A DNA stretch of 52,249 nucleotides, from IMG/VR virus record IMGVR_UViG_3300044823_000078, positions 1 through 52,249 of that record; one strand, given 5' to 3'. A program made the translations under genes and the position numbers. The stretch is from a virus (taxonomy: Duplodnaviria > Caudoviricetes). This document shows, piece by piece, positions 2,171-49,463 of the stretch. Position 1 is the stretch's first letter. Every line of letters starts with the position of its first letter. Below the pieces are notes generated by a model. It had not been told where the DNA came from. It saw only the letters and a list, made by a program, of their open reading frames with translations, and did not search any database.

Positions 2171-4488
2171 AAACCCTAACCTGGAGCGACGAACAAAAAG
2201 CTATCTTCGCTGAGTTCAAGAGCGGCACCCGGCATGTCGTCGTTGAGGCCTATGCCGGGACTGGCAAGACGGCCACAATCAAGGAGGCATTTAATCATTC
2301 GCCGGAACGTCGAATGCTCTACGCTGTATTCAATAAGCGTGCGCAAAAAGAGGCTGAGGCTAAAATTACAGGCGACCGCGTGGATGTTCGCACGCTCCAC
2401 TCGCTCGGCTATATGTTCATCAAGAATGTGTGGAGCAACGCCAAGGCCGATAATGATATTGAGTATGAACGTGCAGTTCAAACCTGCGGCCCCGGTGATA
2501 AGGAATACATCGGCATGGTAGTTAAGCTTGTTAGCTTCGTAAAGAATACGTGCATCAATCCGACCGAGGCCGAGATAATCCAAATCGCAAATGAGCGGCT
2601 TCAATGGGACGGAGAATCTGCCCGCGTGTTGGCCGGAGCCTGCCAGAAGATTCTTGCGCAGTCCAAAGTCCGAGACTCGCATGGCCGCATTTCCTTCGAC
2701 GACATGGTCTGGCTTCCGGTGGCAATGAACTGGGTTAAGCCTCGCTACGAATTAGTGGTCGTTGACGAGGCACAAGATATGAATACACCCCAACTGGCGA
2801 TGGCTCGGCAAGCGTCAAGCGGTCGGGTGATTGTGGTCGGTGACCGCCGGCAGGCCATCTACGGTTTCCGGGGGGCAGCAACTGACGGAATGGGAATGAT
2901 GAAAACTGTCTTGCGCGCCACTGAGTTGAAACTCACTACAACTTACCGCTGCCCAAAGGCTGTTGTGAAAGAGGCCAACTCCGTAGTCCCGGAATACCGC
3001 GCCGCTGATACCGCGCTGGAAGGCCTGGTCGCCCCTGGAAGCGTTTCAAATGCCGAGGTAGGTGATTCTATCCTATCCCGCCTAAACGCCCCCCTGATGC
3101 CCATTGCGCTTCAACTCATACGTGCAGGAAAGCCTGCAAGGATTGAGGGTCGGGATATTGGCCGGCAACTGCTTTCCATGGTGCGCACAATGAAAGCCCG
3201 GAGCGTGCCGCATTTTATTGAACGCGTTGAGGGTTGGCTTGCAAAACAAATCGAGCGGCTCGGGAAGCAGAAGAAAGCCGAGAAGCGAATTGAGCAAGCG
3301 GATGATATTGCGCAAACCCTCAAGGCTGTGGCTGAAGGCTGCAAGGGTGTAAGTGAAGTCGAGCAACGCATCCAGAATTTATTCGAGGACACTACTGCGC
3401 AGAGTCGGCCAGCAATAGTCCTTTCCTCGGTTCACAAAGCCAAGGGCTTGGAATGGCCACGAGTGTTCCTGCTGACCGAAACCTTTCGGCGCGGCAAGGG
3501 AACGGAAGAGGACAACATTTATTATGTTGCCGTGACTCGTGCAATGAAGGAATTGTATTTGGTCGGTGGAAAAGAAATTCAACTTCAAAAAACTGTAGGT
3601 ATTGGTCAATCTGCGCCAGGAACAATTCCTGGTGCTGTTCAAATTTCTCCGGCGGTTGAACCTAGTCGTCTGGACGCTTCGGCTCCAGTTCCGGTTGCTG
3701 TGATTGTTAGCACTCAACCCGCAACCGCCGGAGTTACTTTGGATAACTACCGAACCCCAACCGGGCTTATTTACCATCAGCTTGGGAATGTGGTAAAGCT
3801 CGTCGGAACGGAACACGTTTGCATCGGAGTGAACGACTGCACGGCCAAGTTTGTTCCATGCGGAAAGGTGACCCGAGTAATTGAGAATCGGTTCGATGCC
3901 GAAAAGAATCGCACTGTAGAGTTTACATCCAACAAGCAACAGAATATATGTTCAACCACCGACCCGGAGTTTATCATCCGGGTCATGCCGAAAAAGGAAT
4001 TGCAAGTTTTCCTTGACCGAGTAGCCGGTAAGTCAAAGGAAAAAACCGAAACCGGCAAACAACAAACAACCGAAGAAAATAGTATGAAGACAAAAGGCAA
4101 AGCAGTGAAATCCAAATCCAAAACATCCGACACGTTGAGCACAATCGTTGCGCTGGCCAAGTCCGGCAAGACGGAAGCCGCAATCGTGGCAGGAATTAAG
4201 AAAGCCAACGGCGGTGAAATCAGCGCGGCACAGACTTATCTTTGTGGCCGGGAATGGCGCCGGGAAAATGATATGCTCCGCAAAGGTGGGCCAATCCGTT
4301 CCACAAAGGCCGCCAAAACGCCCAGCAAGCCCGCCAAGGCTTCTAAAGCTCCAGCTAAGCCTTCCAAGGCCAAAGCGACTAAAGCCCCGGCGCGGAAGCT
4401 CCCACAGCCGCCGAAGCTGCCCGTTCCCGCGAAGCCCGTCAGCTCAACCCCGCCGCCGCGTCCCGGCTCCGACCAAACCAGCGAGTAA
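2167..4488 (+). CDS. UvrD/Rep-like SF1 helicase with long C-terminal extension
   Basis: AYAGTGKT, VVDEAQD, VGDRRQAIYGFRG, TYRCP, SVHKAKGLEW, YVAVTRA. Confidence 0.92.
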   Translation: MKTLTWSDEQKAIFAEFKSGTRHVVVEAYAGTGKTATIKEAFNHSPERRMLYAVFNKRAQKEAEAKITGDRVDVRTLHSLGYMFIKNVWSNAKADNDIEYERAVQTCGPGDKEYIGMVVKLVSFVKNTCINPTEAEIIQIANERLQWDGESARVLAGACQKILAQSKVRDSHGRISFDDMVWLPVAMNWVKPRYELVVVDEAQDMNTPQLAMARQASSGRVIVVGDRRQAIYGFRGAATDGMGMMKTVLRATELKLTTTYRCPKAVVKEANSVVPEYRAADTALEGLVAPGSVSNAEVGDSILSRLNAPLMPIALQLIRAGKPARIEGRDIGRQLLSMVRTMKARSVPHFIERVEGWLAKQIERLGKQKKAEKRIEQADDIAQTLKAVAEGCKGVSEVEQRIQNLFEDTTAQSRPAIVLSSVHKAKGLEWPRVFLLTETFRRGKGTEEDNIYYVAVTRAMKELYLVGGKEIQLQKTVGIGQSAPGTIPGAVQISPAVEPSRLDASAPVPVAVIVSTQPATAGVTLDNYRTPTGLIYHQLGNVVKLVGTEHVCIGVNDCTAKFVPCGKVTRVIENRFDAEKNRTVEFTSNKQQNICSTTDPEFIIRVMPKKELQVFLDRVAGKSKEKTETGKQQTTEENSMKTKGKAVKSKSKTSDTLSTIVALAKSGKTEAAIVAGIKKANGGEISAAQTYLCGREWRRENDMLRKGGPIRSTKAAKTPSKPAKASKAPAKPSKAKATKAPARKLPQPPKLPVPAKPVSSTPPPRPGSDQTSE

Positions 4489-4505
4489 ATCCCAAATCAA
4501 AAGTC

Positions 4506-4540
4506 GGCGCGGTCTCGCAATTGAAGGCCGCGCCACTTTC
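4506..4540 (+). terminator. GC-rich hairpin, possible terminator or processing site
   Basis: GGCGCGGTC...GGCCGCGCC stem right after the helicase stop; weak T tract. Confidence 0.35.
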
Positions 4541-4549
4541 ATTAAATTT

Positions 4550-5236
4550 ATGGACTTAATTGAAAACCAGGATTACGTTTTTGTAAAAGGGCACGGAATA
4601 AAACATCCACCCTTCGGCCACTACCTTTTATGCAGCAACGATGATGGGAGCAAAAGGAATGCCGTCGTTCCGTATATGGATGGCTTTAAGCTGCTTAACT
4701 TTTTACCGACCGATACGGTCGTTGACATCGGCGCTTACTGCGGAACATTCTTTTGCTTTGTTGATAAGTTTCGAGTTGATAGGGTTGATTTTTACGAGCC
4801 AACCATGCGCGCCTTTTATATTGCCAGCATGAATGCGGCTCGTTGTAAAAACAAAGTAGTCGGCCATCATTCAGCAATAGTCGCCGGAATTAAGCCAGTA
4901 ACTGAGTTTTATATTTCGCCAGGCATCGGTGTTACGAATAGGCTTTGGCCGGCGAGCAAGTCGCGCAAGGTCGTTATCAGCGCAACCCAATATTCCCGCG
5001 CCGTTAAAAATGCAACGGTGGTAAAGATTGATATTGAGGGTGGCGAGTATAACCTGCCGCTTGTCCAGCCGAGTCTGCGTCAAGCCTGTATTGATTTTCA
5101 TCCGATTCCTAGGAATAAACTTTGGACAGATGAGGCGGATAGTCGTATTGCAGAATTTGAAGCTGCCGGATTTACGTGCCTACTGCGCCCGACATGGAAA
5201 AATGGATGGAGCCGGGTTGCTGTTTTACGAAAATAA
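4550..5236 (+). CDS. FkbM-family SAM-dependent methyltransferase
   Basis: VVDIGAYCG, FYEP, VKIDIEGGEY motifs; ATG at 4550 preferred over the track start at 4148. Confidence 0.8.
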   Translation: MDLIENQDYVFVKGHGIKHPPFGHYLLCSNDDGSKRNAVVPYMDGFKLLNFLPTDTVVDIGAYCGTFFCFVDKFRVDRVDFYEPTMRAFYIASMNAARCKNKVVGHHSAIVAGIKPVTEFYISPGIGVTNRLWPASKSRKVVISATQYSRAVKNATVVKIDIEGGEYNLPLVQPSLRQACIDFHPIPRNKLWTDEADSRIAEFEAAGFTCLLRPTWKNGWSRVAVLRK

Positions 5237-13860: not shown

Positions 13861-14328
13861 ATGAGCCAACCACCACCGAGGCCGAATAAATTAACAGGGC
13901 CGCCGCCGAGGCCGCCGAAAAAGTTCCAGTTACATATTCAGAGGGACTTAATCGAGCCGGCCACTGAAGATGGTCAAGCTCCAGGCTATACGTCGAAGAT
14001 TCTAGCTCCGATTTACAAGCCGAGCGGAAAGAAGCCGGACATACTAGAACTGCTTAACCAGTCGAAAGCGAAAGCGTTAATTGGGAAGATTCTAGCGTCG
14101 AAGGTTTCTGAAGCCGAAAAGAAGTTCCTGGTCGAGGCGGCAAAGCGGCATAATGTTTTTTACTATAAGCTAATTGCAAATTATTATGCGCAGTCCTCTC
14201 CGGAAATGCAGGCATTAATGGAACAGTCGGCACTTGTCATTATTGACTTCGATAAGGCAATCGAAAGCGGTTACATAGATTTTAACGAAGAGGTTGAGGA
14301 GTTATACAAACGTGAAACAGGCCACTGA
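13861..14328 (+). CDS. Conserved phage protein, likely partner of the adjacent glycosyltransferase
   Basis: YTSKI-APIY-P...FL--AA-RH-VF-Y...SALVIIDFDKAI pattern; overlaps the next gene. Confidence 0.55.
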   Translation: MSQPPPRPNKLTGPPPRPPKKFQLHIQRDLIEPATEDGQAPGYTSKILAPIYKPSGKKPDILELLNQSKAKALIGKILASKVSEAEKKFLVEAAKRHNVFYYKLIANYYAQSSPEMQALMEQSALVIIDFDKAIESGYIDFNEEVEELYKRETGH

Positions 14329-15430
14329 AAATTTCTGCATCTTTATTTTAAGTCGAGGCCGGCCCGACAGCATGGCAACGTGCAGCCTGCTTGAGCGGTA
14401 TGGATACGACGGCCCGCTCTTTATACTGTTAGATGAAGACGATAAGACGAGGGATGAATACCACGCCAGGTACGGAGATAAAGTCATCGTAATTAAAACT
14501 CCATCTGCGCAGAGCAATCTGGATAGCTTTGATAACTTCGGAAAACACGCAGTCCTGCACGGCCGCAATGTGTGTTTCGATATCGCCGAGTCGCTGGGTT
14601 ACAAATACTTTCTGCAACTTGATGATGATTATACTGGGTTTGGGTTTCGGTTTCCAGAACCGGAATTAAAGAATGTCCACGGCGGAATAAAGTGGTCGTG
14701 GGTTATGACTAGGAAAACACTTAACGAAGTAATTCGGGCAACGATTCGGTTATTTATTAAAACTGGAGCATCTAGTATCGCCTACTCTCAGGGCGGCGAC
14801 TGGATGTCGGCAAGTTCGGGAAGCTCTGCATCGTTTTCGTTCCGTAAGTGCATGAACTCGTTCTTTTGCTCAACAAGCCGAAGGTTTAATTTCATCGGAC
14901 GCGCAAACGAAGATGTAAATACCTATACATTACTCGGAAGTCGCGGGCTTTTATTTCTAACCTTACCGCATTTCCAAGTATGCCAGCGCACGACCCAAAA
15001 ATGTAAAGGCGGCACCACAGACGTATATCTTGATGAAGGCACATATGTTAAAAGTTTTTATTCGATACTCTGCGCGCCAAGTTGTGTTAAGATAAAAATC
15101 ATGGGCAGCGCGCGGCGAAGGTTGCATCATAAGATTAACTGGGATACAGCTGTTCCAATGATTCTAAGTGAACAGCATAAAAAGGAAAAGGGCGGCGCAC
15201 GTGAAATAGTTAACGAATGGCCGGAAACTTCTGAATCGGATTTATTTACCAGAATGCAGTATCGTGATGTTTTAATTAAACCGAAAGTGGTTATAAAGCG
15301 CCGAATTAAAACCGCTGAACAACTTTTACCGAAGAAAAAAAGCATAGAGATTACGACAGAATTTGTAGACCACTTTGCCGGCCGTGGATTTTATCGTAGT
15401 CCGAAAGCCGATATCCAACCAAACTTATGA
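14312..15430 (+). CDS. GT-A glycosyltransferase, TAGT/GREB1-like (DNA-modification type)
   Basis: FILSRGRP, GRN, LQLDDDY (DxD), MNSF, NEDV, GGTTDVY; GTG at 14312 follows GAGGAG. Confidence 0.7.
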   Translation: MKQATENFCIFILSRGRPDSMATCSLLERYGYDGPLFILLDEDDKTRDEYHARYGDKVIVIKTPSAQSNLDSFDNFGKHAVLHGRNVCFDIAESLGYKYFLQLDDDYTGFGFRFPEPELKNVHGGIKWSWVMTRKTLNEVIRATIRLFIKTGASSIAYSQGGDWMSASSGSSASFSFRKCMNSFFCSTSRRFNFIGRANEDVNTYTLLGSRGLLFLTLPHFQVCQRTTQKCKGGTTDVYLDEGTYVKSFYSILCAPSCVKIKIMGSARRRLHHKINWDTAVPMILSEQHKKEKGGAREIVNEWPETSESDLFTRMQYRDVLIKPKVVIKRRIKTAEQLLPKKKSIEITTEFVDHFAGRGFYRSPKADIQPNL

Positions 15431-17020: not shown

Positions 17021-17386
17021 ATGAAACCCGATGCCTACATGCCGATGTATTGGGCGGAGTTTTGGGCAGCAGTGGATGGCCAGCCCGATAACATTATCCT
17101 CGGTTATGAACGGGCCATGTCGCATTACTGGCAGCACAATCATTGCGCAGGCTTAAGGGACGACTCTGAATTTCTCCGCAGGCTGTGCCGCATTGAACGT
17201 GAAGATTGGGAAGCGGCAATGGCCATTATATTCGATAACGACAAATTCTTTACGCTCGGCGAGGATAACTTATGGCATCAGAAACGGTGCCGACAAGAGT
17301 GGGACTGGGCGATTGAAAAATACAATAAGGCGGTCGAGAATGGAAAGCTCGGCGGATACCGGAAACACAAACGAAGGAGACAATAA
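17021..17386 (+). CDS. DUF1376 (YdaU-like) protein
   Basis: YMPMY--EF, GY...YW, LR-D...L-RL, W-QKR pattern. Confidence 0.65.
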   Translation: MKPDAYMPMYWAEFWAAVDGQPDNIILGYERAMSHYWQHNHCAGLRDDSEFLRRLCRIEREDWEAAMAIIFDNDKFFTLGEDNLWHQKRCRQEWDWAIEKYNKAVENGKLGGYRKHKRRRQ

Positions 17387-17510
17387 CGAATCAAGCTCTG
17401 CCACGAGTGGTGGGCGGAGCGCAACAAATGAAACCAAACCGTAAAATTAACGCGATGCCGCCAACTGGAAGGGACACCACTCGTTGTGCAGCAGCGCGTT
17501 GTTAGGAAGC
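17381..17510 (+). other. attC-like site 1
   Basis: TAAC 17384-17387; inverted repeat ACGAGTGGTG 17403-17412 / CACCACTCGT 17475-17484; GTTAGG at 17501. Confidence 0.65.
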
Positions 17511-17515
17511 GTCTT

Positions 17516-17749
17516 ATGGCAGACATAAAAAATAAAGCACCTGAAAATGTAATCGGAAAATACTTCGTGGACTGTGCCGAATGTATTGACTGTGACCTAT
17601 GCAATGAAACCGCCCCGAATAATTTTGGCCGCAACAGCGACAAGGCATATTCATTCGTCAGCAAGCAGCCGACAACGCCAGAGGAAGAAAAGCTCTGCCG
17701 TGAATCAAAGGAAATATGCCCAGTAGAGGCCATCGGGGTAGCTTCCTAA
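17516..17749 (+). CDS. Single-cluster ferredoxin (4Fe-4S/3Fe-4S)
   Basis: CIDCDLC...CPVEAI; bracketed by GTTAGGAAGC and GCTTCCTAAC. Confidence 0.9.
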   Translation: MADIKNKAPENVIGKYFVDCAECIDCDLCNETAPNNFGRNSDKAYSFVSKQPTTPEEEKLCRESKEICPVEAIGVAS

Positions 17750-17794
17750 CGACAAGCTGAGGCGTGCTGTGACCGACAACCAACAAAGGTAAAT

Positions 17795-17956
17795 ATGACA
17801 AATGATAATTGCAAAACTGAGAAAGTGTGGTGCTACGTTTCGCTTGTGGCCCTTGGTGTAACTTTGGGCTGCATCATCACAGGAAACGGCTCTAGTGCAA
17901 TCGCCGCTTCCATTATTTTCGCAACGTCGGTCTATGGGTATGAGCACCAAACCTAA
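17795..17956 (+). CDS. 53-aa membrane peptide (below the ORF-track cutoff)
   Basis: MTNDNCKTEKVWCYVSLVALGVTLGCIITG...AIAASIIFATSVYG; stop lies in CCTAAT. Confidence 0.45.
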   Translation: MTNDNCKTEKVWCYVSLVALGVTLGCIITGNGSSAIAASIIFATSVYGYEHQT

Positions 17957-18113
17957 TTCGCCGATAAAACGCCGATATGCAGAGGGATGGTGCGAAGGAA
18001 AATACTTCTGCATCCAAGTCGCCGCCGGAGAAACGATGACGCAACTTAAAAAGCACTTCCGAGAAACGGTGGGGCATGATCGTATAAATGTGTGGCGGTG
18101 GTTTTGGGCCTAA
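17940..18113 (+). CDS. Small hypothetical cassette-like ORF
   Basis: Stop codon is the TAA of GCCTAAC. Confidence 0.4.
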   Translation: MSTKPNSPIKRRYAEGWCEGKYFCIQVAAGETMTQLKKHFRETVGHDRINVWRWFWA

Positions 18114-18217
18114 CGCTGCCCGATGAGCCACGTCGGACTAATGACTTTATGAAACCTGAACTCGAAGTGAATAAAACTGGACGCCCAACCGACGTTGGCT
18201 CCGGCGACTGGTTAGGT
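18108..18217 (+). other. attC-like site (best conserved)
   Basis: GCCTAAC 18108-18114; GAGCCACGTCGG 18125-18136 pairs with CCGACGTTGGCTC 18189-18201 with one extra base; GTTAGGT 18211-18217. Confidence 0.8.
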
Positions 18218-18251
18218 GTCCGGTCAACTGAAACAAAATCGAACATAAAAT

Positions 18252-18452
18252 ATGGACTCAACTAACTCACTAACTGTCTGCGAGGTGAACGGTAAAAGCC
18301 GCTCGGAACTCGAAGAACTGCCGCGCTGCGAAATCCGCAGTCATTGGAACGACAACGATCTCGTCGTCGTGCAAATCCTCAACCAAGTCGTGACGCTGCG
18401 AGCGCGTGAAATCATCGCTGCCGTCTCAAACTCAACCAACATCCCGCGCTAG
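18252..18452 (+). CDS. Hypothetical cassette-borne protein
   Basis: Lies between GTTAGGTGTCC (18211) and GGATGCCTAAC (18452-18462). Confidence 0.6.
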   Translation: MDSTNSLTVCEVNGKSRSELEELPRCEIRSHWNDNDLVVVQILNQVVTLRAREIIAAVSNSTNIPR

Positions 18453-19103
18453 GATGCCTAACGACGGAGCTATGCCGCGCTGACAAACCAAAAACGATAT
18501 GGGAAATATACCCCCAAAACCCCTCCTAAAAAGGCTAGTTTTAAGGCCAACTAAAAGTAGCGACCCTAGTAGCCACCCTACTAGCTTATCTACGTTTGCA
18601 GCTACTAGCTCCACTAGTAGCAATAAGAGTATAAGACAGGGCTGCGCAAGGAAAAAGGTTTGGCTCTTTGCTTTTAGCCCACCCCCACTCTCCTTGCTCC
18701 CAAAGCATCTATCCGTAACCCAGCCAGCATCCGTCCCGTTCTGGGAACATTCACTGCTTCGTAAAATGGATTTATTATTAAGCAGTCCGATTGGATTCAC
18801 GTATCTGTCCGTATTAAGGAAGCGGTCGTTGGATTATCGGAGGGCAGGTGCATCTGAATCCTGGAGGCTGGCCGCACGCGACTTGTATCACGCGCTGGGA
18901 TTCGATTTGAGCCGTCCGATGCCCGAGAAGCCTAAAAGGTTAGGGGCGGGGCTAATGAGGCCGCCAGTACGCGTCCAGGCTCCAAGAATAAGCGGTGTGG
19001 TGCCGCCCCGTCCGGACAAACGCAAGGAATCTTTTACTGGAAAGGTTTCAAGCTAGGGCTTAGAACAGTCCTGACTGTAGCTATAATTTTCTAAAAAACG
19101 AAT

Positions 19104-19613
19104 ATGTTAAAAGCGAAACGTAAAAGCGGCCACAGCGGACGCGTTAGAATACAGTGGCCAACACTCACTGGAGCGGCGGCGTTTTGTGGATTGACCGGCG
19201 CGCCCGAAAGCGTAGTGAAGTATTTACGTGCGGACGGGAAGTGCGATGCCTTTTTGTCAAATAACCGGATTCATTCACTGAAAATGATTCGTGCGGTATT
19301 CGGAGAATTGCTTAAAGCCGGAGAACTTCCGAGCGGCATTGCCACGCCTCAAGACTGGAAAGCACTGGAACAGGCGCGGCGCGAATCAATCAAACGGAAG
19401 CACGATGAGAAGCTGTTTATGTTGACCGCCGATGCTATGCGCCAGGCCAGTCAAGCGATGGCCTTGACCTTTGTGGAATGGGAACGTCTTGCCCGAGAGC
19501 TTCCACCAGCAGTGGCAGGACTTGCGGCGGATGAGGTTGGCGAACGGATGACGGTGGAGATTGAACGGATGCGGAAAACATTAACCAAGAAGTTTATGGA
19601 GATTGGAAAATGA
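19104..19613 (+). CDS. terS: Putative terminase small subunit
   Basis: Directly upstream of and overlapping terL; helical Nu1-like layout with LPP-VAGL. Confidence 0.6.
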   Translation: MLKAKRKSGHSGRVRIQWPTLTGAAAFCGLTGAPESVVKYLRADGKCDAFLSNNRIHSLKMIRAVFGELLKAGELPSGIATPQDWKALEQARRESIKRKHDEKLFMLTADAMRQASQAMALTFVEWERLARELPPAVAGLAADEVGERMTVEIERMRKTLTKKFMEIGK

Positions 19614-21571
19614 CTAAATCCCCACCACCAAATCCTTTTCGGGTTGTGCATCAAATCTTCGCCAACTCAATTCCTGCGCCACCCCCAGCAGATATAGTCG
19701 AGTGGGCAGAACGGATTGGGATAAAGGTGGACGGGCATTCATTTGACTCTGCGCGCAATCCTAGAATCCTCGACCCAATGCGCGCAATGTGTGATTCTCG
19801 GACTCGTATCGGGACTTTAATCAAGCCCGTGCAGGACGGCGGCTCAACTGCCGGTGAAGTTGTTTGCGCATACTGGGCCGCATTCTTTACCGGACTGATT
19901 CAATACAACTGGCAGGATGATGACAAGGCGAAGGATAGATGGTTCGACCGGATTAAACCTACCCTTGATTCCTGCGCAGACATTCGCAGAACCGGTGGGC
20001 GATTCTCCGAGACTATTTGCGAGGCCCGCTATGTTAATTCAACCGTGCGCGTCCAGGGCGTATTCAATGAATCGTCCCTCGACTCCGATACGATACCACT
20101 TCAACTGAATGAGGAAATCCATTTATGGAAACCTGGCTTTCTTGGAAAGGCGCGGCGCAGACAGACTCAAGTTTGGAATGCGAAGGCGCTCGACATATCA
20201 AATGCCAGTAACATCGGCGACCAACTCCACTCGGCGTGGCAGGACGGAACGATGCAAGAGTGGGAAATCTTTTGTCCGAAGTGTGGAAGTTATCACGCAA
20301 TGCACTTCCGCTGGAATCCAGACAAGCCGGAACTTGGCGGGCTGCGTTATAATACTGATGGATGCCGGATGAAAGATGGACGGTTCGATTATAACCGGCT
20401 GGAACATACGATACGCTACCAGATGCCGTGCGGTCATGAAGTCAAGGACACAGCCTCAGACCGGCGCAACTTAAAAGGCTGGTGGTCGCTTCCAAGGAAC
20501 GAAGGAGCGCACGTCTCGCACCGCTCTTGGAACTATGAGGGTGTGTCCTGCGAGGCAATTAGCTGGCTTGCGCTGATTCAGGAATGGCATTCGGCGGTCA
20601 GAGCATTGAAGGCTGGAGACATTCAGCCTATGCGCAGGTTCGTTACTGAGCGTGAATGCAAATTCTGGTCTGAAGAGTCTATCCCGTTCTCCGGCGTGGT
20701 GATAGTGAATAAAATGTTGACCAAATCCCGTAAAGGTTTGAAAGGCCGCGCGGCGCGGTTCTGGTTTGCGGACAAGCAAAAAGGATATGTTCACAAAGGC
20801 CAGTTCGTCCATTACTGGTTGGTGATTCGTGATGTGATGAAAAACTGCGACAGTCAGTTGGTGTTCGAGGGATTGGTCCAGACGGATGCCGACTTGCTTG
20901 CAAGGTTGGCCGAACACGACTGTGTTCCACAAAGCGGCGCGGTTGATTGCGGCTGGGATAGGGAAAATGTTTTACAGCTTTGCTACCGGAACAACTTCAA
21001 TGCACAGACTTCATCTGCGCAGGAAAAGTTATTTTTCCACGTGCTTGACCGGACGTATAAAATTTACTCGAAGCCGGAAGGATTACATAAGCAGTTGAAA
21101 GTTCCGCCGAAGTTTGATTACACGCAGCTAAGGAATATGGACGGTTCAATCGAATACATTCCAAATCCCGAAGAGCCGATGCACTGGGCAATCCACAAGG
21201 TCGGCTCACTGAAACTCTTGAAGTTTCTGCGTGGCCACAAAGAGCTGGTTGAAAAGAATGGCGGAACGGATTTTATCAAGTGGGAAGTTCCGGGCGATGT
21301 GAGTGATGAATATAAACGCCACATGGAGTCCTGGGAATTCACTACCCGGAAACGGGTCGGAACAAACGAGACGGTGGAAGTCTGCCGGCAAAGGTTTGCA
21401 GACGACCATATGTTGATGTGCGAAGCTGGAATCGCAAACCTGATGGCGATGGCTCCGCATCCAGACTTCCCGACAATATCAATCCTGTCTGTGCGGCTTG
21501 CGCAGATGGGAATCACCGAAGATGTGGTCGGCGGTAAACAATCAACAACAACTGAGGAGGAAAAGAAATGA
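19610..21571 (+). CDS. terL: Terminase large subunit, GpA family
   Basis: I-EWAE, KPVQDGGST, LNEE, CPKCG, VDCGW, DHMLMCE. Confidence 0.88.
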   Translation: MTKSPPPNPFRVVHQIFANSIPAPPPADIVEWAERIGIKVDGHSFDSARNPRILDPMRAMCDSRTRIGTLIKPVQDGGSTAGEVVCAYWAAFFTGLIQYNWQDDDKAKDRWFDRIKPTLDSCADIRRTGGRFSETICEARYVNSTVRVQGVFNESSLDSDTIPLQLNEEIHLWKPGFLGKARRRQTQVWNAKALDISNASNIGDQLHSAWQDGTMQEWEIFCPKCGSYHAMHFRWNPDKPELGGLRYNTDGCRMKDGRFDYNRLEHTIRYQMPCGHEVKDTASDRRNLKGWWSLPRNEGAHVSHRSWNYEGVSCEAISWLALIQEWHSAVRALKAGDIQPMRRFVTERECKFWSEESIPFSGVVIVNKMLTKSRKGLKGRAARFWFADKQKGYVHKGQFVHYWLVIRDVMKNCDSQLVFEGLVQTDADLLARLAEHDCVPQSGAVDCGWDRENVLQLCYRNNFNAQTSSAQEKLFFHVLDRTYKIYSKPEGLHKQLKVPPKFDYTQLRNMDGSIEYIPNPEEPMHWAIHKVGSLKLLKFLRGHKELVEKNGGTDFIKWEVPGDVSDEYKRHMESWEFTTRKRVGTNETVEVCRQRFADDHMLMCEAGIANLMAMAPHPDFPTISILSVRLAQMGITEDVVGGKQSTTTEEEKK

Positions 21572-21815
21572 GTAAACCGCCGCCCAGACCTGGAAAAGAA
21601 ATAAACGTCCTTAGCCTTGGAGCTGGAGTCCAAAGTTCTGTAATGGGACTAATGGCCGCATGCGGAGAAATAACACCAATGCCGGAAAATGTGCAGGCGT
21701 CCCGTATTTACATTCTAGCGCAATTCCATTAGGTAATGTAGATTTTTTTACCGAAGAGGATAATGGCCAAATGAATATGTTTAATAATGAATGTGAAGGG
21801 ATGTGTGGGGTATGA
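21568..21815 (+). pseudogene. Internally deleted PP-loop (PAPS-reductase-like) gene
   Basis: N-terminal VLSLGAGVQS joined out of frame to C-terminal YLHSS-IPL...FNNECEGMCGV*. Confidence 0.65.
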
Positions 21816-21994
21816 CCCTCTCACCCCGCCAACGCCAAGTCATACTCCTCGTTTGTTCTGGTCTGGCGAATAAGCAGATTGCCGACCGGCTTGGCATTTC
21901 GGAGAATACGGTCAGCAATCACATGAAGATGATTTTCCGAAAGCTGAAATGTTGTTGTCGGGCACAGGCGGTAGCGAAATGGCTAAGGAGATAA
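21812..21994 (+). CDS. Stand-alone LuxR/GerE-type HTH regulator
   Basis: LSPRQRQVILLVCSGLANKQIADRLGISENTVSNHMKMIFRKL. Confidence 0.92.
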   Translation: MTLSPRQRQVILLVCSGLANKQIADRLGISENTVSNHMKMIFRKLKCCCRAQAVAKWLRR

Positions 21995-21996
21995 TG

Positions 21997-22014
21997 TTGG
22001 ACCAATTGGTCCAA
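21997..22014. promoter_or_regulatory. Perfect 18-bp palindrome TTGGACCAATTGGTCCAA, candidate operator
   Basis: Self-complementary; 17 bp recur at 10248-10264. Confidence 0.6.
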
Positions 22015-22064
22015 GCGTGTAGTCATAAATGGCCATACGGATAGCTAAAAATGTTTAGTGTTTT

Positions 22065-22099
22065 GGTAGTAGCTACATCTAGCTACTACCATTTTTTTT
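22065..22099 (+). terminator. Hairpin with T tract ahead of the head genes
   Basis: GGTAGTAGCTA-CATC-TAGCTACTACC followed by ATTTTTTTT. Confidence 0.6.
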
Positions 22100-22120
22100 G
22101 TCTTGGCTTAAAGTTCTTAC

Positions 22121-22582
22121 GTGGATTCTAATACAGACGACTTGGCTGCGTTCCTTGACCGCGCTTGGAATAATGCTAAGGATGGTGCCAATGCCCTGCC
22201 GGAACAACTTTCCATTGAACAACAGGCTGCGTTAAATTTCATTGCCCCGATAGGTTCGGTCATTTCGGTTTCTAAAAACTCTACTTCCCAATCTTCCGGC
22301 GGATATAATCCAGGCAACCTTACGCTGCGGCAGGTGGTCGGAATCTGGACCAAGCTGATTGAGTTGTATGATGAAGTCAAAGCAAGGATAGTTTCGGCAG
22401 CGGCCTGTGATTCGGTTGTGCTTCCTGACGGATTTGATTTTGATGGCCCAGTGTATCAAGTAATGAAAAGCACTCTAAAAGTTTCAGGCCGGGTCGCTAC
22501 TAGTCCAGACTTGCGAGACCTGCGCGTTCCACTTTCTCGAACCGAGACTCTTGAATTTAATGTGGTCGGTTATATTCCATGA
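22121..22582 (+). CDS. Hypothetical protein in the gpW (head completion) position
   Basis: Between terminase and portal; GTG start. Confidence 0.45.
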   Translation: MDSNTDDLAAFLDRAWNNAKDGANALPEQLSIEQQAALNFIAPIGSVISVSKNSTSQSSGGYNPGNLTLRQVVGIWTKLIELYDEVKARIVSAAACDSVVLPDGFDFDGPVYQVMKSTLKVSGRVATSPDLRDLRVPLSRTETLEFNVVGYIP

Positions 22583-24381
22583 GAAAAACCACACAACATA
22601 AATCTCGTAAACCAAGCCGAACGCGCATGATTCAAAATGAGTCTCGTGCGATTGCTTTACTTTCAATTACAAACCCACGCCAGGTTCAGTTTGCGCCGCG
22701 TAATGAGCGCAGGTTAGTTGAGCGTGCGGTGAAAACTCTTTGCTTCGGTTCAAAGCCTCACCTTGTTCGTAACTGGTATGAATCCGGGAATCCTTATTCG
22801 GACGGTTCGCGCTCATACTTGCCGGAAGTCTTAACCGATGCACGCTACGACCAGAATCAAATCACTCGGCGTGAAGCAATGCGCCGGATGCGTTACTGGG
22901 AGCAAAATTCAATCTTCGTAAAACGTGGACTTGATGTTAGCGAGCAGTATGTAATCGGCACGCATTGTCCAGTGGTAACTTCACTTTCCACGAATACGGA
23001 TTGGGCGGCTCAGGCTGAGATTGTTTTCCACGAGATGTGCCAGAATGCCGGACTCGATGGTGAATCCATTTTCTCATTACTCTGTGTTGGCCATCGTCGG
23101 AAGAAAGTTGACGGAAATGTTCTGTTCGTTCAGACGAGCAGGCCCGGCTCGGTTACTATTCGGCGCGGAACAAAATACGAAACCCTACTCGGAGTGATGC
23201 GGCCCTGTTACCAGATGGTTGAATCCCATCGCGTCGGGACTCCGTTCGCCATGTGGCAGGAAGAAGGCCAAGACATTTTCGATGGTATCGAATACGGAAT
23301 TATTTCGACTCAGCTTCCCGGCGGACAATCGGTTGAACATAAAGTCAAGACCTGCTACTGGGTGAATGAATCTGCAAACGTCTTTTCGGTTCAACAGGGT
23401 TTCACCAAGGTGCCGGTTCAGTTCGCTTATTATGCTGCGCAGGCTCATCGGGTAAACGAACCGCGCAGCATGACTGATTTTTACGCCGCAGAGCCGACAC
23501 TTGCATTGCTCGAAGACATGCTCAAGTTGGAAATGAAAGCGCAGGAAGTCCAAAGCGATATTTCGTTGTTCATTACGAATGGGGCCGGGCAGGAAGTGAA
23601 GCCTGGCATGCAATCAACCTTGGCCGCTCTCGGTGTGAAGGTAACTGCCGGCGCGAACGGTGCTAATCCGGTGGTGACTACGAACGACATCGAGAAAGTC
23701 AAAACCATTTATGAAAAAATCTGGGGTGGGCGCACGGCTGTTGGTCGAACCGGAGACACACTTGCGACCGTTGCTCCGAATCGTCCTGCTGAAGCGACCC
23801 TTAATCTATGGAACTTCCTTATTGATTCGTTTTGCGCCGCTAGTGGCTTTCCCCGTTTGCTTATCTTTCCCAAATCCCAGATGAAAGGGCAGGGCACGGA
23901 AGTCCGCGCCGAAATTGAAGCTGCCAATGCGATGTTCATCAAGGAGTTTAACCAAATCTGGAAACCATTTATCCATCAAGTCTGGGAATACTTTATGGGC
24001 TGGGCAATCCGAAATGATGAGCGTGTGAAAAATGCTCCAGCGGATTGGATGAACATAGATGTTTCCCATCCGCGCTCGATAGTGGTTGACCTTGGTTATG
24101 CTACTGCCGAAACAATTTCATTCTTGGCCGCAGGCCTTATTAACCTTCACCAAGTCGCCCAACAATTCGGGACGACACGTTCTAAAATCATAGCCGGGGC
24201 GGTCAAGGATGTTTTTGATATAAAGCTTGCGTGTCAGGAAATGGCCAAGCTTCCGCAGTATAAAGGAATTGAAGTGGATGCCGCCGAAATCCGGGCAAGC
24301 CTTGGCGATGCTGCGCAAAAGTTGGCATCGAGTAATGCGGCTAGCGAAACATCGGCAATATCCGCGAATAGTGAATTATGA
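22579..24381 (+). CDS. Portal protein, lambda family
   Basis: WYES...R--MRYWEQN...YVIG...VDGNV...DGIE; position between terminase and protease. Confidence 0.8.
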   Translation: MRKTTQHKSRKPSRTRMIQNESRAIALLSITNPRQVQFAPRNERRLVERAVKTLCFGSKPHLVRNWYESGNPYSDGSRSYLPEVLTDARYDQNQITRREAMRRMRYWEQNSIFVKRGLDVSEQYVIGTHCPVVTSLSTNTDWAAQAEIVFHEMCQNAGLDGESIFSLLCVGHRRKKVDGNVLFVQTSRPGSVTIRRGTKYETLLGVMRPCYQMVESHRVGTPFAMWQEEGQDIFDGIEYGIISTQLPGGQSVEHKVKTCYWVNESANVFSVQQGFTKVPVQFAYYAAQAHRVNEPRSMTDFYAAEPTLALLEDMLKLEMKAQEVQSDISLFITNGAGQEVKPGMQSTLAALGVKVTAGANGANPVVTTNDIEKVKTIYEKIWGGRTAVGRTGDTLATVAPNRPAEATLNLWNFLIDSFCAASGFPRLLIFPKSQMKGQGTEVRAEIEAANAMFIKEFNQIWKPFIHQVWEYFMGWAIRNDERVKNAPADWMNIDVSHPRSIVVDLGYATAETISFLAAGLINLHQVAQQFGTTRSKIIAGAVKDVFDIKLACQEMAKLPQYKGIEVDAAEIRASLGDAAQKLASSNAASETSAISANSEL

Positions 24382-25835
24382 AAAAACTTTTTAACTTTCT
24401 TTGGGGCAGCATCGAAGTGGTTAACTCTGCCGGCGGCCCGTCCCAAATGGCCATCTACGATACTATCGGTAAAGACGACTTTTCTGGCGGTGGTATTACC
24501 GGGGCTGATTTTTCCCAAGCGCTGAACTCGGCAAATAACATGCAGGACTTGCACATCCACGTGAACTCGAAGGGCGGAGATGTTCATCACGGAATGTCAA
24601 TGCGTAATGCTTTGAAAGCTTGGAAGAACAAGACCGGGCGCAAAGTAACGACTATCATTGATGGTATAGCGGCCTCCACTGCTTCCTGGGCCTTCCCCAC
24701 AGCCTCCGATGAGGTAAAAGCCTATAAAGGGAGCCAAGTCTTTGTTCACGAAGCCATGGCGCTGGCGGCCGGTTCGGCGGAGAACTTCCGGGACACGGCA
24801 GACATCCTCGATAAGACTTCGATGCAGATTGCGGATATGTATGCCGAGAAGTCCGGCAAGCCGGCATCCATGTGGCGCAACAAGATGAAGTCCGGTTCAC
24901 TTATGACCGGCGATGAGGCAATGGGCGAAGGCTTAGTGGATTCGATTATCGACGGCAACGCTACCAACTTTGGTCCGTGGGTTGAGACCGTGAAGCAACA
25001 GCTGGTGATTCAGAATCAGTTGTTAAACTTCAATGAGAATCACGACGAAAAGGGACAGTTTGCCACCGGAGTTGCTGAAGCAAAGCAATTAAGCAGTAAG
25101 GCATACAAGGCAAGTGCAAAGGCCAATAAGTCTCAAAAGGAAATCGATCACGGTGACGCTATGCGCGCCCACGAAAAAGCTGGCAAGGCGTGGTTCAAGT
25201 TAGAAAAACAAGACCCAAGTTTGCGGGCTGAAAAAGGCGGGTATGAATCTGACCGCTCAGTTGAACATTCAACCTATGCCGAAGAGCATAGAATGTCAGG
25301 AAATGTAAAAGAAGATTTTAACATTCCTGAACATAAAAACCAAATTTCATCCGCTCCCACGCAGGGCGCGGAGAACGACAAACAAAACGAAAGTGAAAAA
25401 CAGTTGGTGATTCAGAATCAGTTATTGAATTACAATGAGAATCATGACGAGGGTGGGCGATTCTCTGAAAGTATGTCATCGGCGTCAGCCGATGCAGATT
25501 CAAGGGCAGCCGAGGAAGCGTCCCACGATGCTGATGAACATGACCGAGCCGATAAACATCAAAACGCCGCAAAGTTAAACCGCGATGCCGCAAAAAGTCA
25601 TAGCGCTGTCGCTAAAGAATATCCCAAGGGAAGCAGCGACCGCTCGCGCCACGAAAGAATGGCAACTGAACATCGCCAAGCCGCAAGTTGGCATGCAACA
25701 TTTTCTAAAAATCAAATTTCTTCCGCTCCCACGCAGGGCGCGGAGAATCTGGACACGATTAAACTGATTTTGAATTTTAATCCGCCAGAGAAAAGCGCGC
25801 TCGATTTAATTAGCTCTGCCGTCGCAGGGCAGTAG
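24378..25835 (+). CDS. ClpP-type prohead protease with repeat-bounded C-terminal modules
   Basis: IYDTIG, VNSKGGDV, IDGIAASTAS, FVHE, YAEKSG, GLVDSI. Confidence 0.9.
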   Translation: MKKLFNFLWGSIEVVNSAGGPSQMAIYDTIGKDDFSGGGITGADFSQALNSANNMQDLHIHVNSKGGDVHHGMSMRNALKAWKNKTGRKVTTIIDGIAASTASWAFPTASDEVKAYKGSQVFVHEAMALAAGSAENFRDTADILDKTSMQIADMYAEKSGKPASMWRNKMKSGSLMTGDEAMGEGLVDSIIDGNATNFGPWVETVKQQLVIQNQLLNFNENHDEKGQFATGVAEAKQLSSKAYKASAKANKSQKEIDHGDAMRAHEKAGKAWFKLEKQDPSLRAEKGGYESDRSVEHSTYAEEHRMSGNVKEDFNIPEHKNQISSAPTQGAENDKQNESEKQLVIQNQLLNYNENHDEGGRFSESMSSASADADSRAAEEASHDADEHDRADKHQNAAKLNRDAAKSHSAVAKEYPKGSSDRSRHERMATEHRQAASWHATFSKNQISSAPTQGAENLDTIKLILNFNPPEKSALDLISSAVAGQ

Positions 25836-25867
25836 AAAACAAAAACAAAAAAACAAGGTAAACATAT

Positions 25868-27409
25868 ATGAGAAAAAAAATGGAAGCCCTGCTGAATAGT
25901 TGGCAGGTGCCGTTTACGAAAGAAAATACCGACGAAGAACTTTTTACGTTGGTTGAAAATAATAAGGCCGCGCACGCTGAAAAGATTGTGCCGCCCGTTG
26001 TGGAAAACAAAGTCACCGGCTTGAGTGCGGCTGACCAGCAAGTCTTGGCTGACCTTCGCAACCAGCTGTCCAATTCGCGCCGGAAGGAAATTCTGGGCGT
26101 GGTTGAGAAGCACGCCAGCGATGGCCGCATCCCGGTCAATGAAATCGAAAACTGGGTGAACGACGCCGTCGCGATTCAGGACAATCCGACTACTGGCAAC
26201 TCGGTTTTGAACCGCCTCGCTAAGTTGGAAGCGCACGCCCCGGGCATGGCTCCGCTCCCGATGGAAAACACCAAACTTGATGTGGTGAATGCCGACATCA
26301 AGGACATCTCGAAGGGCTTCCAGCTCCACAACGAATCTACGAAGGCATTCCAACGCGGATTGATTGATGGTGAGCGGGCGATGAAAACCATCCGCAATGA
26401 TGCGGTCGCCAAGGCGCACTTTTTCAAGAAGTTCAAGAGCCGCTTCCTGGAAGTGATGAACGCGAACACCATTGACGCCGGACTCCAGCGCCAGGTGATC
26501 CTGCAAGACGTGGTTATTCGGGACTTCGCCCGCAGGGTCATCTCGCTGAATATGTTCAGTACCGTATTCCGTGATGTGCCGCTGCAAGGTTTGGATACGG
26601 TCGAAGTTCCTTACTACGACCTGGACACATCGGCTTCTACGCCGTTTGTTTCCGGCACCGGTTACACCACCGTCGGGAATACAACCAGTTCCAAGCGTGA
26701 GATTCAAATTGGTGAAGGCACGGGCGGAACTGGTATTGTTGGCGCAGGACATTGCCGGCTCTATCAGGCTCTGGCTTTTAGCTCGCAGGAAATTGCTCGC
26801 CAGCCTTACTTGAAGGTTGCTGAGCTTGCTGGATTGAAAGCCGAGAAATTGGCCTTCGATATTTGGCAGGATATTCTGTCCGTGATTACGGTTGCCAACT
26901 TTGGTGCGGCCGCAATTACGAAGGCTGCTGCTCAGTTCGATAGTGATCAAATCGCGCTGCTCAAACTGGCCTGTAAGAAATGGCCTGAAGGTGGCCGTGG
27001 TTTAGTTCTGGATTCGGCATACGATGCGAACCTGCTCCAAGACCCGTCATTCAAGTTCGCTCTCAATGCCGCCAGCGACCTGGCCATCAAGGAAGGCCGA
27101 CTGTTCCCGCGCGTGATGGGATTTGATTATACCGAAAATCCAAATATCCCAGCAAACGGAATCAACCTGGTTGGTTTCGCAGTTTGGAAATACGCCATTC
27201 TGGTTGCCTTCGCCCCCGTTCCTCCGGTCGAGGAAGTCCGCCGCGCAGGCACGGTGTGGGAAATGATTACCGACCCGGCCACTGGTATCACCCTGGAATA
27301 CCGCCAGTTTGGTACTAATACGACCGACGTTGCCACGAACGTGATTGAATCATCCTACGGTTATGCCGCAGGACTCAAGACTGCGTTGAAGATGATTGTT
27401 TCCGCATAA
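25868..27409 (+). CDS. Major capsid protein with N-terminal scaffold region
   Basis: Follows the protease; ~200-aa helical leader then ANTID...VEVPY...GFDY-EN...GY capsid-like body; strongly biased codons. Confidence 0.8.
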   Translation: MRKKMEALLNSWQVPFTKENTDEELFTLVENNKAAHAEKIVPPVVENKVTGLSAADQQVLADLRNQLSNSRRKEILGVVEKHASDGRIPVNEIENWVNDAVAIQDNPTTGNSVLNRLAKLEAHAPGMAPLPMENTKLDVVNADIKDISKGFQLHNESTKAFQRGLIDGERAMKTIRNDAVAKAHFFKKFKSRFLEVMNANTIDAGLQRQVILQDVVIRDFARRVISLNMFSTVFRDVPLQGLDTVEVPYYDLDTSASTPFVSGTGYTTVGNTTSSKREIQIGEGTGGTGIVGAGHCRLYQALAFSSQEIARQPYLKVAELAGLKAEKLAFDIWQDILSVITVANFGAAAITKAAAQFDSDQIALLKLACKKWPEGGRGLVLDSAYDANLLQDPSFKFALNAASDLAIKEGRLFPRVMGFDYTENPNIPANGINLVGFAVWKYAILVAFAPVPPVEEVRRAGTVWEMITDPATGITLEYRQFGTNTTDVATNVIESSYGYAAGLKTALKMIVSA

Positions 27410-42687: not shown

Positions 42688-43194
42688 ATGAAAACGACTA
42701 AAACATTAAAACTCTCCGGCAACATGATTGCAATTCCCATAGACAGCGCAACTGGTGACTGTGTAGTTGATGAATCGCACCATCCAAACCTAAACAAGAC
42801 GGCCAATAATCCAGACGGCTTATGCTACGCTCGTCACATCTACGACCAGCAGCAGGCGCAACGCGCAACGCCCACGCCGTGGCAGCTGGTTATTGACCAT
42901 CACCGCATTACTGGCGCGGACGGCTCAACAATTATCTACGCGAATGGACTTGGAAATTCGACAGCAAATCTCTCGAAGGCTGTTCAGGCCGTGAACGAAC
43001 ACGCTGCGCTTGTGGCGGTGGCGGAAGCGGCGAGGTCGTTGGAGTCACAAGTTGTCTCAGTTATAATGTATGATGACCACGGCGAACAAGGTCAAACAAC
43101 TGACCGCAATGAGCCTCACCGCCGACTACTACGCCAAGCCCTCGCCCAACTCGCCGCCGTTCGCGGCGGGAAAGGAATCTCTCCCGGCTCTTAA
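42688..43194 (+). CDS. Hypothetical early protein (TP-PW motif) spanning the junction
   Basis: ATPTPW...AVNEHAALV; in the circular form it would end at VRGGK* (156-158). Confidence 0.65.
   Translation: MKTTKTLKLSGNMIAIPIDSATGDCVVDESHHPNLNKTANNPDGLCYARHIYDQQQAQRATPTPWQLVIDHHRITGADGSTIIYANGLGNSTANLSKAVQAVNEHAALVAVAEAARSLESQVVSVIMYDDHGEQGQTTDRNEPHRRLLRQALAQLAAVRGGKGISPGS
43136..43176 (+). repeat. 41-bp gene-end repeat (identical at 44137-44177, variant at 118-155)
   Basis: AAGCCCTCGCCCAACTCGCCGCCGTTCGCGGCGGGAAAGGA. Confidence 0.92.
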
Positions 43195-43857: not shown

Positions 43858-44189
43858 AACCACACAAGCGATTAATGGCCGCGATGAAAGCGGCGAAACA
43901 AATGCGTGGGAAGATTCTATTGAAGGATTGGCTTGCGCAACAACCCAAGAGCACGCGCAAAGGAGTCGCACGCGGAACGAAAAAAGCTGAGCCACCGCCG
44001 ACTCGTGACGTGAACCGCGACAGCGGAACGGACAGCGCCAACGGCGGTTGGCTCCGGCGACTTTACGGACACAACTCAACTTTTAGCTATGGCAACAAAG
44101 CTATTGTGAAAGGCGTTGACTGCGTTGCCGTTCGCGAAGCCCTCGCCCAACTCGCCGCCGTTCGCGGCGGGAAAGGAGGCGCGAAGTGA
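43854..44189 (+). CDS. Mosaic hypothetical ORF reading through an attC-like site
   Basis: ATGA-coupled start; ends in ALAQLAAVRGGK. Confidence 0.45.
   Translation: MKPHKRLMAAMKAAKQMRGKILLKDWLAQQPKSTRKGVARGTKKAEPPPTRDVNRDSGTDSANGGWLRRLYGHNSTFSYGNKAIVKGVDCVAVREALAQLAAVRGGKGGAK
43972..44066 (+). other. Degenerate attC-like site
   Basis: AAC 43976-43978; GAGCCACCGCCG 43989-44000 / CGGCGGTTGGCTC 44042-44054; final GTT core missing. Confidence 0.6.
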
Positions 44190-44587: not shown

Positions 44588-44902
44588 TTTTTTGTTCTTT
44601 GAAACTTTGTTCTGCGGCGACGTGGCCGGAAGGTCTTTCTGCGCGACTCCAAGACGCGCAGCTTATTCCTTCATCGGTCTGGAACTCGCCTTAGCTGGAA
44701 CCTCATAAGTCAGGACTGCTCGCCCGCACGAGAGCGACAAGCGGCACTGTTAGGCCGATATAAACGAACCGCGAAAAACTTTGCGCTCGACGCGGAGGGA
44801 AGTAAACGGCGCAAGAACGGCGCGGCGGAGTGTCCTGTGCAAGGTTACGCCTTTACTGAGGGCTGTATTTTCCTGCCTCTCCAGCAGCGGAACAAAGTTT
44901 TG

Positions 44903-44938
44903 TTGACAAGCGCGCGCGAATCGCTTATTGATTTGCTG
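44903..44938 (+). promoter_or_regulatory. TTGACA promoter, probably giving a leaderless portal mRNA
   Basis: TTGACA 44903-44908, ATG 36 nt later; same geometry at 47376 and 47924. Confidence 0.55.
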
Positions 44939-49452: not shown

Positions 49453-49463
49453 TCGAGGTGCCT

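Follow-up and report, generated by a model that had tools for sequence, protein, structure and literature searches.

A phage genome record of 52,249 nucleotides, IMGVR_UViG_3300044823_000078 (Duplodnaviria; Caudoviricetes), which over its full length is referred to here as the window, carries between its replication genes and its terminase genes a cluster of attC-like sites at 17379-18500. Two complete attC-like hairpins, E1 and E2, and two truncated sites separate a ferredoxin gene from three tiny open reading frames (ORFs) (Table 1), a layout that the original prediction had read as an integron-type cassette array inside a phage genome with no integrase. The phage nature of the window is clear from the helicases, exonuclease, glucosyltransferase, terminase, portal, protease and major head protein that it encodes, and CheckV puts the completeness of the record at 57%.

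E2, which had been placed at 18108-18217 with outer boxes GCCTAAC and GTTAGGT, indeed has these boxes, and its inner arms, CCG-AT-GAGCCA-CGTCGG and CCGACG-T-TGGCTC-CGG, pair with extra bases as described. It scores 82.2 bits against R1, the covariance model of the element family described below, as a member of the seed; its single-sequence fold has an energy of -16.8 kcal/mol (z -2.15), and its 3′ 22-28 nt are identical to host attC sites. E1, proposed as a similar site at 17381-17510, is a diverged member of the family and reaches 28.1 bits (E 5.6e-6) against R1 from outside the seed. Its 5′ box, CAATAAC, departs from the RYYY of the attC consensus, with AAC and GTTAGGA kept. The same site recurs at 95.2% identity over 124 nt in the viral contigs L029 and L017, there with other sequence on both sides. 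The two sites for which only left halves had been noticed (at 17743 and 18456) match no more of the family consensus than its first 20-25 nt, and when right halves were sought, no GTTRRR partner or complementary arm was found downstream of either. The truncated site at 17745 has no fold better than shuffles (z +1.04 and +0.73) and no R1 match, and the one at 18456 contains a 22-nt exact match to the equivalent part of host and phage sites.

The cassette-like arrangement of the genes between these sites is as it had been described. The ferredoxin gene is bracketed by GTTAGGAAGC (17501-17510) and GCTTCCTAAC (17741-17750), a 10/10 complementary core that lies in a 19-nt inverted repeat of 84% complementarity (16/19), and the brackets of the ORF at 18252-18452 are complementary at 9/11 positions. 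Successive ORFs end at or beside an AAC box: the stop codon is the TAA of ATAAC at 17384-17386 and the TAA of CCTAAC at 17747-17749 and at 18111-18113, and a fourth, the TAG at 18450-18452, lies 4 nt before GCCTAAC. The overlapping ORFs of the second cassette body match no Pfam family and have a single weak PHROG match (E 0.005), and no family was found for the 66-aa ORF in Pfam or PHROG searches.

Searched over the whole window (both strands, filters off), R1 matches three places, the next best hit scoring 9.8 bits (E 1.8). GTTAGG/CCTAAC is not enriched across the window (12 found, 13.4 expected), and six of the 12 occurrences fall within 17501-18944. The single-sequence folds are modestly better than those of shuffles (z -1.5 to -2.15). 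Taken by itself, the window makes a suggestive, not compelling, case for attC. With two complete and two truncated sites within 1.1 kb and no intI match in the 52-kb record, the cluster falls under the IntegronFinder definition of a cluster of attC sites lacking an integron integrase (CALIN), given as at least two attC sites within 4 kb with no integron integrase nearby (PMC4889954).

Table 1. Positions of the sites, cassette bodies and bordering genes in the window
Feature	Position	Strand	Description
DUF1376 / primosomal-like gene, left border of the cluster	17021..17386	+	Pfam DUF1376 E 5.8e-7; PHROG primosomal protein 9e-10
attC site E1, diverged member	17379..17509	+	ATAAC box, 10-bp perfect stem (ACGAGTGGTG/CACCACTCGT), GTTAGGA box
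Cassette body 1, single-cluster 4Fe-4S ferredoxin gene 17516-17749	17501..17750	+	Fer4_13 E 5.3e-19
Truncated attC	17745..17790	+	CCTAAC-GACAAGCTGAGGC; AAC box, spacer and stem start of the family consensus; no 3′ arm
Cassette body 2, overlapping ORFs 17795-17956 (53 aa, hydrophobic) and 17940-18113 (57 aa)	17795..18113	+	From the ORF list
attC site E2, complete	18106..18219	+	GCCTAAC, spacer, GAGCCA-CGTCGG stem, 47-nt variable loop
E2, 3′ half	within 18106..18219	+	CCGACG-T-TGGCTC (bulged T), then CGGCGACTG, then GTTAGGT
Cassette body 3, 66-aa ORF 18252-18452	18211..18462	+	Brackets GTTAGGTGTCC (18211-18221) and GGATGCCTAAC (18452-18462)
Truncated attC	18456..18500	+	GCCTAAC-GACGGAGCT; 5′ part of the consensus only; no fold (z -0.46)
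Small terminase gene, right border	19104-19613	+	PHROG small terminase, weak, E 0.007
Large terminase gene, right border (packaging module)	19610-21571	+	GpA_ATPase 2.8e-10; PHROG large terminase 6e-9
Lone attC copy E3	43970..44070	+	R1 83.2 bits, seed member

An element family shared with Verrucomicrobiae integrons

A distant relative of the window found through its DUF1376 protein (39% identity), contig L010, carries at least six copies of a ~100-nt element between small ORFs. A scan of IMG/VR with a 15-mer from this element returned 94 stretches, about half of them chance single matches. The 55 true elements among them comprise 47 distinct sequences, one a false positive, and are spread over at least 20 different viral contigs; alignment A1 holds the 46 distinct viral-contig copies, from which R1 was built. 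On the phage + strand the 5′ half of the element consists of a YTAAC box, a spacer of ~7-10 nt and a stem of GAGCCA plus ~6 variable base pairs; next comes a loop, variable and 35-75 nt long, that often has a small CCGC-GNNA-GCGG hairpin; and in the 3′ half the return arm, which has a bulged T ahead of TGGCTC, leads through the spacer CGGCGACTK to a GTTAGGY box. The R boxes of the family consensus, gcCTAAC and GTTAGGC, like those of E2, agree with the 5′-RYYYAAC-3′ and 5′-GTTRRRY-3′ described for the two ends of attC sites (PMC5027507). Site lengths are 101-131 nt in the window, with medians of 108 nt in phages and 99 nt in hosts and a range of 86-165 nt, the published attC length criterion being 57-141 bp.

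The stem, of 12-13 bp, is recovered by RNAalifold on A1, is 89% paired across the 46 sequences and shows compensatory changes at 8 pairs, with 10-26 such changes in each of six stem columns. On the proposed structure 87.8% of the cells pair, against at most 38% when the partner is slid by 1-3 columns, and double-change cells number 105 against 42.7 in shuffles, a value that none of 500 shuffles reaches. The invariance of TTGGCTCCGGCGACT in A1 is due to ascertainment, as it was the search pattern, and the covarying columns lie outside that pattern. The bulged T (alignment column 112) is present in 46/46 sequences, on the arm opposite AAC and followed by the 6-bp TGGCTC. The attC-like bottom-strand fold on which the original prediction depended is borne out by strong covariation in the stem, the single-sequence folds being weak by themselves, and is not seen at the truncated sites.

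Several other identities for the element were considered and rejected. The motif is read in three frames in L010, which marks it as a nucleic-acid element and rules out a peptide-coding motif (VGSGDWLG); Rfam returned no matches over the window and four loci; and neither promoters nor terminators are in excess (4 against 2.5 and 4 against 3.3 expected). Left-only matches make up 63 of the 641 found by nhmmer. One seemingly left-half site, at 631-759 of L010, is a complete diverged attC with its own covarying stem and bulged T (CACCGATGCTGC ... GCAGCA-T-TCGGTG). Some left-only sites are therefore complete attC sites of a diverged subtype, and the family is broader than R1. In the 10-30 nt downstream of the GTTAGGC box, immediately ahead of the following start codon, phage sites often carry a short conserved stretch, CGTGAACTGA or GCGATTAACGACATG, that host sites do not have (e.g. 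L010 2680-2712, window 18217-18240); it may be a phage-specific translation or stop signal.

The same family is found in bacterial chromosomes. When one genome per prokaryotic species was scanned with an exact 21-letter pattern, at least 120 bacterial stretches matched, with up to 14 copies per 8 kb, and among the matches listed 62 of 80 are labelled Verrucomicrobiota, Verrucomicrobiae, Limisphaerales, Pedosphaera or similar, the rest having other labels or doubtful labels of metagenome-assembled genomes (MAGs). All five array-bearing MAGs encode integron integrases that score 399-423 bits against TIGR02249, above a cut-off (265) that none of 14 control genomes exceeds. In 8/8 stretches of 15-20 kb from these MAGs the arrays lie beside intI, with 105 R1 matches at E <= 1e-3, and stop a few hundred bases short of its 5′ end; the original prediction had named this neighbourhood in candidate hosts as a place to look, and its recognition of the integron cassette and attC layout is upheld there. 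At L240, the one locus read in this respect, the cassette ORFs lie on the strand opposite intI, which is the classical divergent layout, and an attI-like junction, the last CCTAAC followed by AGTTAGATTAAG (CCTAAC|AGTTAG), is found ~90 nt before the intI ORF. R1 also matches 47 of 101 sampled genomes of the order of one such MAG. The interiors of phage and host sites are up to 99% identical, and the family forms the integron arrays of Verrucomicrobiae (Limisphaerales/Pedosphaera-type MAGs), which are therefore the likely hosts. We are confident that the window sites are integron attC sites of this host family.

The host arrays span tens of kb, on the scale of superintegrons (G005 C2 ~659-729 kb, C3 ~195-252 kb), and one host genome has several intI copies, some of them partial. 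An ORF inside the L240 array (4101-4559) is presumably an insertion sequence-type, transposase-like gene.

Integron arrays have a signature at their junctions: the bases just past the crossover are part of the neighbouring cassette, so that they are complementary to the far box of the site that follows and not to the box of their own site. We measured it as the complementarity between the 8 nt past a GTTAG box and the 8 nt ahead of the AAC box in the following site. In the phage arrays, 28 of 53 distinct junctions (53%) are complementary at six or more of the eight positions (mean 5.04), compared with 4/69 (6%; mean 3.13) for the control of a site's own two flanks (p 1e-6); in the host arrays the corresponding counts are 224/302 and 58/384. 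L010 provides examples in the brackets GTTAGGCTGCAT / ATGCAGCCTAAC and GTTAGGCCACAC / GTGTGGCCTAAC. Complementary gene brackets of this kind would not result from homologous recombination between repeats.

The polarity assumed in the original prediction turned out to be reversed. The attC bottom strand is described as having 5′-AAC-3′ in its 5′ box and its extrahelical bases on the opposite arm, the last of these being a conserved T and a 6-bp stem separating the first from the last (Nivina et al. 2016, PMC5027507). The phage + strand has AAC in its 5′ box, the bulged T on its 3′ arm, with the 6-bp TGGCTC after the T, and a purine-rich composition (0.54-0.55); together these identify the phage + strand, i.e. 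the sense strand, as the attC bottom strand. Of 270 host spacers, 184 have their ORFs on the strand opposite the element, 13 have them on its own strand and 73 are ambiguous, whereas of 38 phage spacers 15 have them on the element's own strand, 4 on the opposite one and 19 are ambiguous. The phage genes with Pfam support, namely the ferredoxin gene of the window and the R2K ATP-grasp and N6_N4 methylase genes of its relatives, are all on the element + strand, and G004 has two arrays on opposite strands, each with its genes on the element + strand. Phage cassette genes are inverted relative to their attC, unlike those of host cassettes. With the cut at AA|C on the phage + strand, a phage cassette consists of an attC followed by an ORF, and the window contains the units 17387-17749 (363 nt), 17750-18113 (364 nt) and 18114-18461 (348 nt).

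The lone copy and the genomic surroundings

The inventory of sites in the original prediction was correct for the cluster and overlooked a lone copy, E3, farther along the window. Both R boxes of E3 are degenerate (GGAAC and TTTACGG), the site lies in frame inside the ORF at 43854-44189, and 87 of 88 nt are identical to attC sites beside intI in L242. The 111-aa ORF that reads through E3 has a C-terminus (REALAQLAAVRGGKG) that repeats that of the ORF at 42688-43194 (RQALAQLAAVRGGKG). Nearby, at 43650-43770, a tandem 27-nt coding repeat (GGCGGCACCTTGACCGCGATG...) gives rise to GGTLTAM repeats in the ORF at 43288-43857.

The window has two separate head modules. The first (19610-27409) contains the terminase, portal (22579-24381), protease and major head protein genes, and the second (44837-51849) contains portal (44837-46744), protease (48016-49452) and major head protein (50845-51849) genes. 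They may reflect a chimeric join of two phages, possibly via the shared repeat at 43970-44070, or a phage together with a satellite. Hypermodified phage DNA is hinted at by the gene at 14294-15430, whose product resembles a phage beta-glucosyl-HMC alpha-glucosyltransferase (PHROG 842, E 4.9e-57). Between the last truncated site and the small terminase gene lie ~600 nt of non-coding DNA (18480-19100) with the direct repeats TAGCGACCCTAGTAGC / TAGCCACCCTACTAGC / TAGCTCCACTAGTAGC at 18558-18621, and from 18645 onward this DNA is 91% identical to the start of contig L002. This non-coding DNA may hold packaging or regulatory sites.

Probable origin of the cluster and proposed exchange of its cassettes

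We looked for recombinases in five phage records, the window and four others with the family, of which two are complete, having terminal repeats, and a third reaches 94% completeness. Profile searches with PF00589, TIGR02249, PF00239 and PF01797, all of which match control genomes, gave 0/5, so that neither a tyrosine recombinase, nor a serine recombinase, nor a Y1 transposase was found in these records, in agreement with the absence of an integrase claimed originally. At 57% completeness of the window this absence is less certain here than in the complete relatives. A complete integron is set aside by the absence of TIGR02249 and PF00589 matches, and hairpin elements of the REP/RAYT or IS200/IS605 type by that of PF01797 and by the host arrays, which adjoin intI. 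With no recombinase found in the phages, a host IntI acting in trans, as the original prediction proposed for capturing and shuffling cargo, is the natural mechanism to suppose.

Our favoured reading is that 17379-18500 is a small phage-borne CALIN whose cassettes were probably assembled by host IntI in trans. During infection the host integron integrase would fold and cut the attC bottom strand, which is the phage sense strand, at AA|C, and would thereby excise, insert and reorder phage cassettes, each an attC followed by an ORF. A phage with no integrase could in this way gain a shuffleable region of accessory genes, here ferredoxin and tiny ORFs. In the relatives the arrays hold 6-13 or more well-formed sites each, with cargo that includes DNA methylase (N6_N4_Mtase), ATP-grasp and radical-SAM-like genes. 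As to whether the cluster is still active in this phage, we consider the chances even; two of the four sites are truncated, which makes current activity less certain than origin.

Several observations weigh against this reading. Two concern the site itself: the first extrahelical base, as we parse it from the invariant consensus columns, would be the C after TGGCTC and not the usual G, and the 5′ arm has 7-10 nt of spacer separating its R and L boxes, more than the canonical 5-6 nt (10 nt on the 5′ arm and 9 nt on the 3′ arm, or 7 and 5 nt if GCT pairs with GGC). In addition, two of the four window sites are truncated and E1 scores low on R1. The others concern exchange. Among the relatives examined we saw no excision or insertion variant of the window locus: the closest, L002, with a large terminase (TerL) at 94%, begins 165 nt past the last site and gives no comparison of the locus, and relatives at 42-58% DUF1376 identity carry other genes downstream and no element. 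Nor was a close relative spanning the locus found in phage GenBank records, viral contigs or metagenome contigs. By tblastx, 41 phage cassette segments, the three of the window included, have no match in ~1.1 Mb of host arrays; several of these segments are shared among phage contigs at 42-82% identity.

The only recent block shared between two phages, 879 nt at 98%, also counts among these points, as it has an AAC box at one end and a GTTAG box at the opposite end and is not explained by a single canonical event. Its mismatches number 2/118, then 7/654 across attC and genes, and then 8/97 in the next attC, where five of the eight come directly after CTAA|C, and to this extent the block gives modest support to a crossover at AA|C on the + strand. 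At the nucleotide level, homologues of spacers were found in 0/60 phage-phage and phage-host pairs, and host-host pairs lean weakly towards having the same left element and a different right one (19, with 10 the other way). No phage TerL homologue is present in the five host MAGs, and there is thus no sign of phage integration into integrons.

The truncations and the absence of variants would also be expected of a relic, in which the sites entered once from a host integron, by illegitimate recombination or by IntI insertion at a secondary GTT site, and are now immobile and decaying. Of the four sites, two are truncated and fail to fold, E1 reaches only 28 bits, E3 is without intact R boxes and is read through by an ORF, and no variant arrangement of the window locus was found among the relatives examined; we also count on this side a report of IntI-mediated insertion outside att sites (10.1101/2022.09.11.507474). 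Decay, however, does not readily account for intact brackets around the ferredoxin gene (10/10 in the core, 16/19 overall) and the ORF at 18252, for an E1 kept at 95% in another phage and a different context, or for the 6-13 or more well-formed sites of relatives. Gene orientation, moreover, tracks site orientation even in the opposed arrays of G004, a rule that points to a maintained system rather than debris, and we regard a relic as unlikely.

More improbable still is that the hairpins are kept for mRNA processing or stability, for termination or for replication, with swaps made by homologous recombination between the 100-nt repeats, as has been proposed for promoter-stem-loop cassettes in T4-type phages, and IntI uninvolved. 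The sites do lie on the transcribed sense strand in every phage array and are hence part of the mRNA, and the loop often has the small CCGC-GNNA-GCGG hairpin; the 879-nt block that ends at conserved boxes on both sides and the recurrence of E1 with both flanks different are each compatible with recombination at repeat edges. Against this, the 8-12 nt flanking each gene are unique and complementary to each other, not to the site's own boxes, no excess of promoters or terminators and no Rfam match was found, and the identical family serves as attC in bona fide integrons. An assembly artefact, in which a piece of a host integron was joined to a phage contig through a shared repeat, we consider highly improbable. 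Repeats do break assemblies, in 6/6 TerL relatives the contig stops 287-972 nt upstream of that gene (a cohesive-end site, i.e. a physical genome end, was dropped as the explanation, breakage at repeats being simpler), and the lone attC lies near the boundary of the two head modules. Yet the cassette genes share the direction of the phage genes, the reverse of host cassette polarity, those of the window have no homologue in host arrays, E1 and the E2 loop are rare or unique variants and so cannot bridge contigs, and larger arrays are present in two complete phage records that have terminal repeats.

Beyond the reading of the window as a CALIN assembled in trans, it is possible, although we think it rather doubtful, that an integrase-less lineage of Verrucomicrobiae phages maintains its own mirror-image cassette pool, with attC sites of the host family and genes on the bottom strand. 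Every site would then be on the sense strand, probably the lagging-strand template, and would fold often and be shuffled at a high rate by host IntI during infection, while captured host cassettes would stay antisense and silent. Chromosomal cassettes are reported to encode anti-phage defences often (10.1101/2024.07.02.601686), and such a pool would be the phage counterpart of the host cassette bank, a parasitised form of recombination allowing rapid exchange of accessory and counter-defence genes.

Relation to known systems

The arrays resemble sedentary chromosomal integrons, whose attC sites are homogeneous, such as those of the Vibrio cholerae superintegron type and of Verrucomicrobiae, in having the same bracket signature and small, mostly uncharacterised cassettes, and share their attC family with the arrays of the Verrucomicrobiae MAGs. 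They differ from chromosomal integrons in having no intI, attI or common promoter, in being short and in their opposite gene polarity, and the sample examined revealed no cassette content shared with the host arrays. A second point of comparison is the promoter-early stem-loop (PeSL) mobile cassettes of T4-type phages, reportedly described by Arbiol et al. in 2010, in which small accessory ORFs likewise occupy a hyperplastic phage region with a repeated hairpin element between them. The present element differs from PeSL cassettes in having no promoter consensus in or beside it, in boxes that are integron R boxes, in inverted repeats that bracket each gene and in a family common to bacterial integrons.

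Phage-borne CALINs are a kind already known. Qi et al. (2023, Front Microbiol, PMC9892861) report 17 CALINs in phages, virulent ones included, and recombination by IntI1 in vivo of 5/6 tested attC sites from virulent phages. As far as that report describes them, the likeness to the present arrays extends to two or more attC sites with small cassettes and no intI in the genome, to DNA methylase cargo (here in relatives of the window) and to the proposal of a bacterial IntI acting in trans. What sets the present arrays apart from that description is that the sites match attC sites of the chromosomal integrons of the presumed hosts at up to 99%, that these hosts are Verrucomicrobiae, that the family is spread over at least 20 viral contigs and its arrays reach 13 or more sites, and that the genes lie on the attC bottom strand. 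What is new is the near-identity to the attC of a host clade, together with the spread across a phage lineage and the inversion of polarity, with the proviso that the arrays may overlap the 17 CALINs of PMC9892861.

Integrons are commonly regarded as bacterial devices. Phage attC clusters have come to light only lately, and as single cases with no link between their sites and a host integron. Here a near base-for-base match to the chromosomal integrons of one uncultured clade assigns hosts to these phages and names the enzyme expected to act, which makes the idea testable. The reversed gene polarity is unexpected and bears on strand choice, replication and expression in integron recombination. 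Virulent phages would, if cassette exchange takes place during infection, acquire small accessory genes and rearrange them site-specifically with no recombinase of their own.

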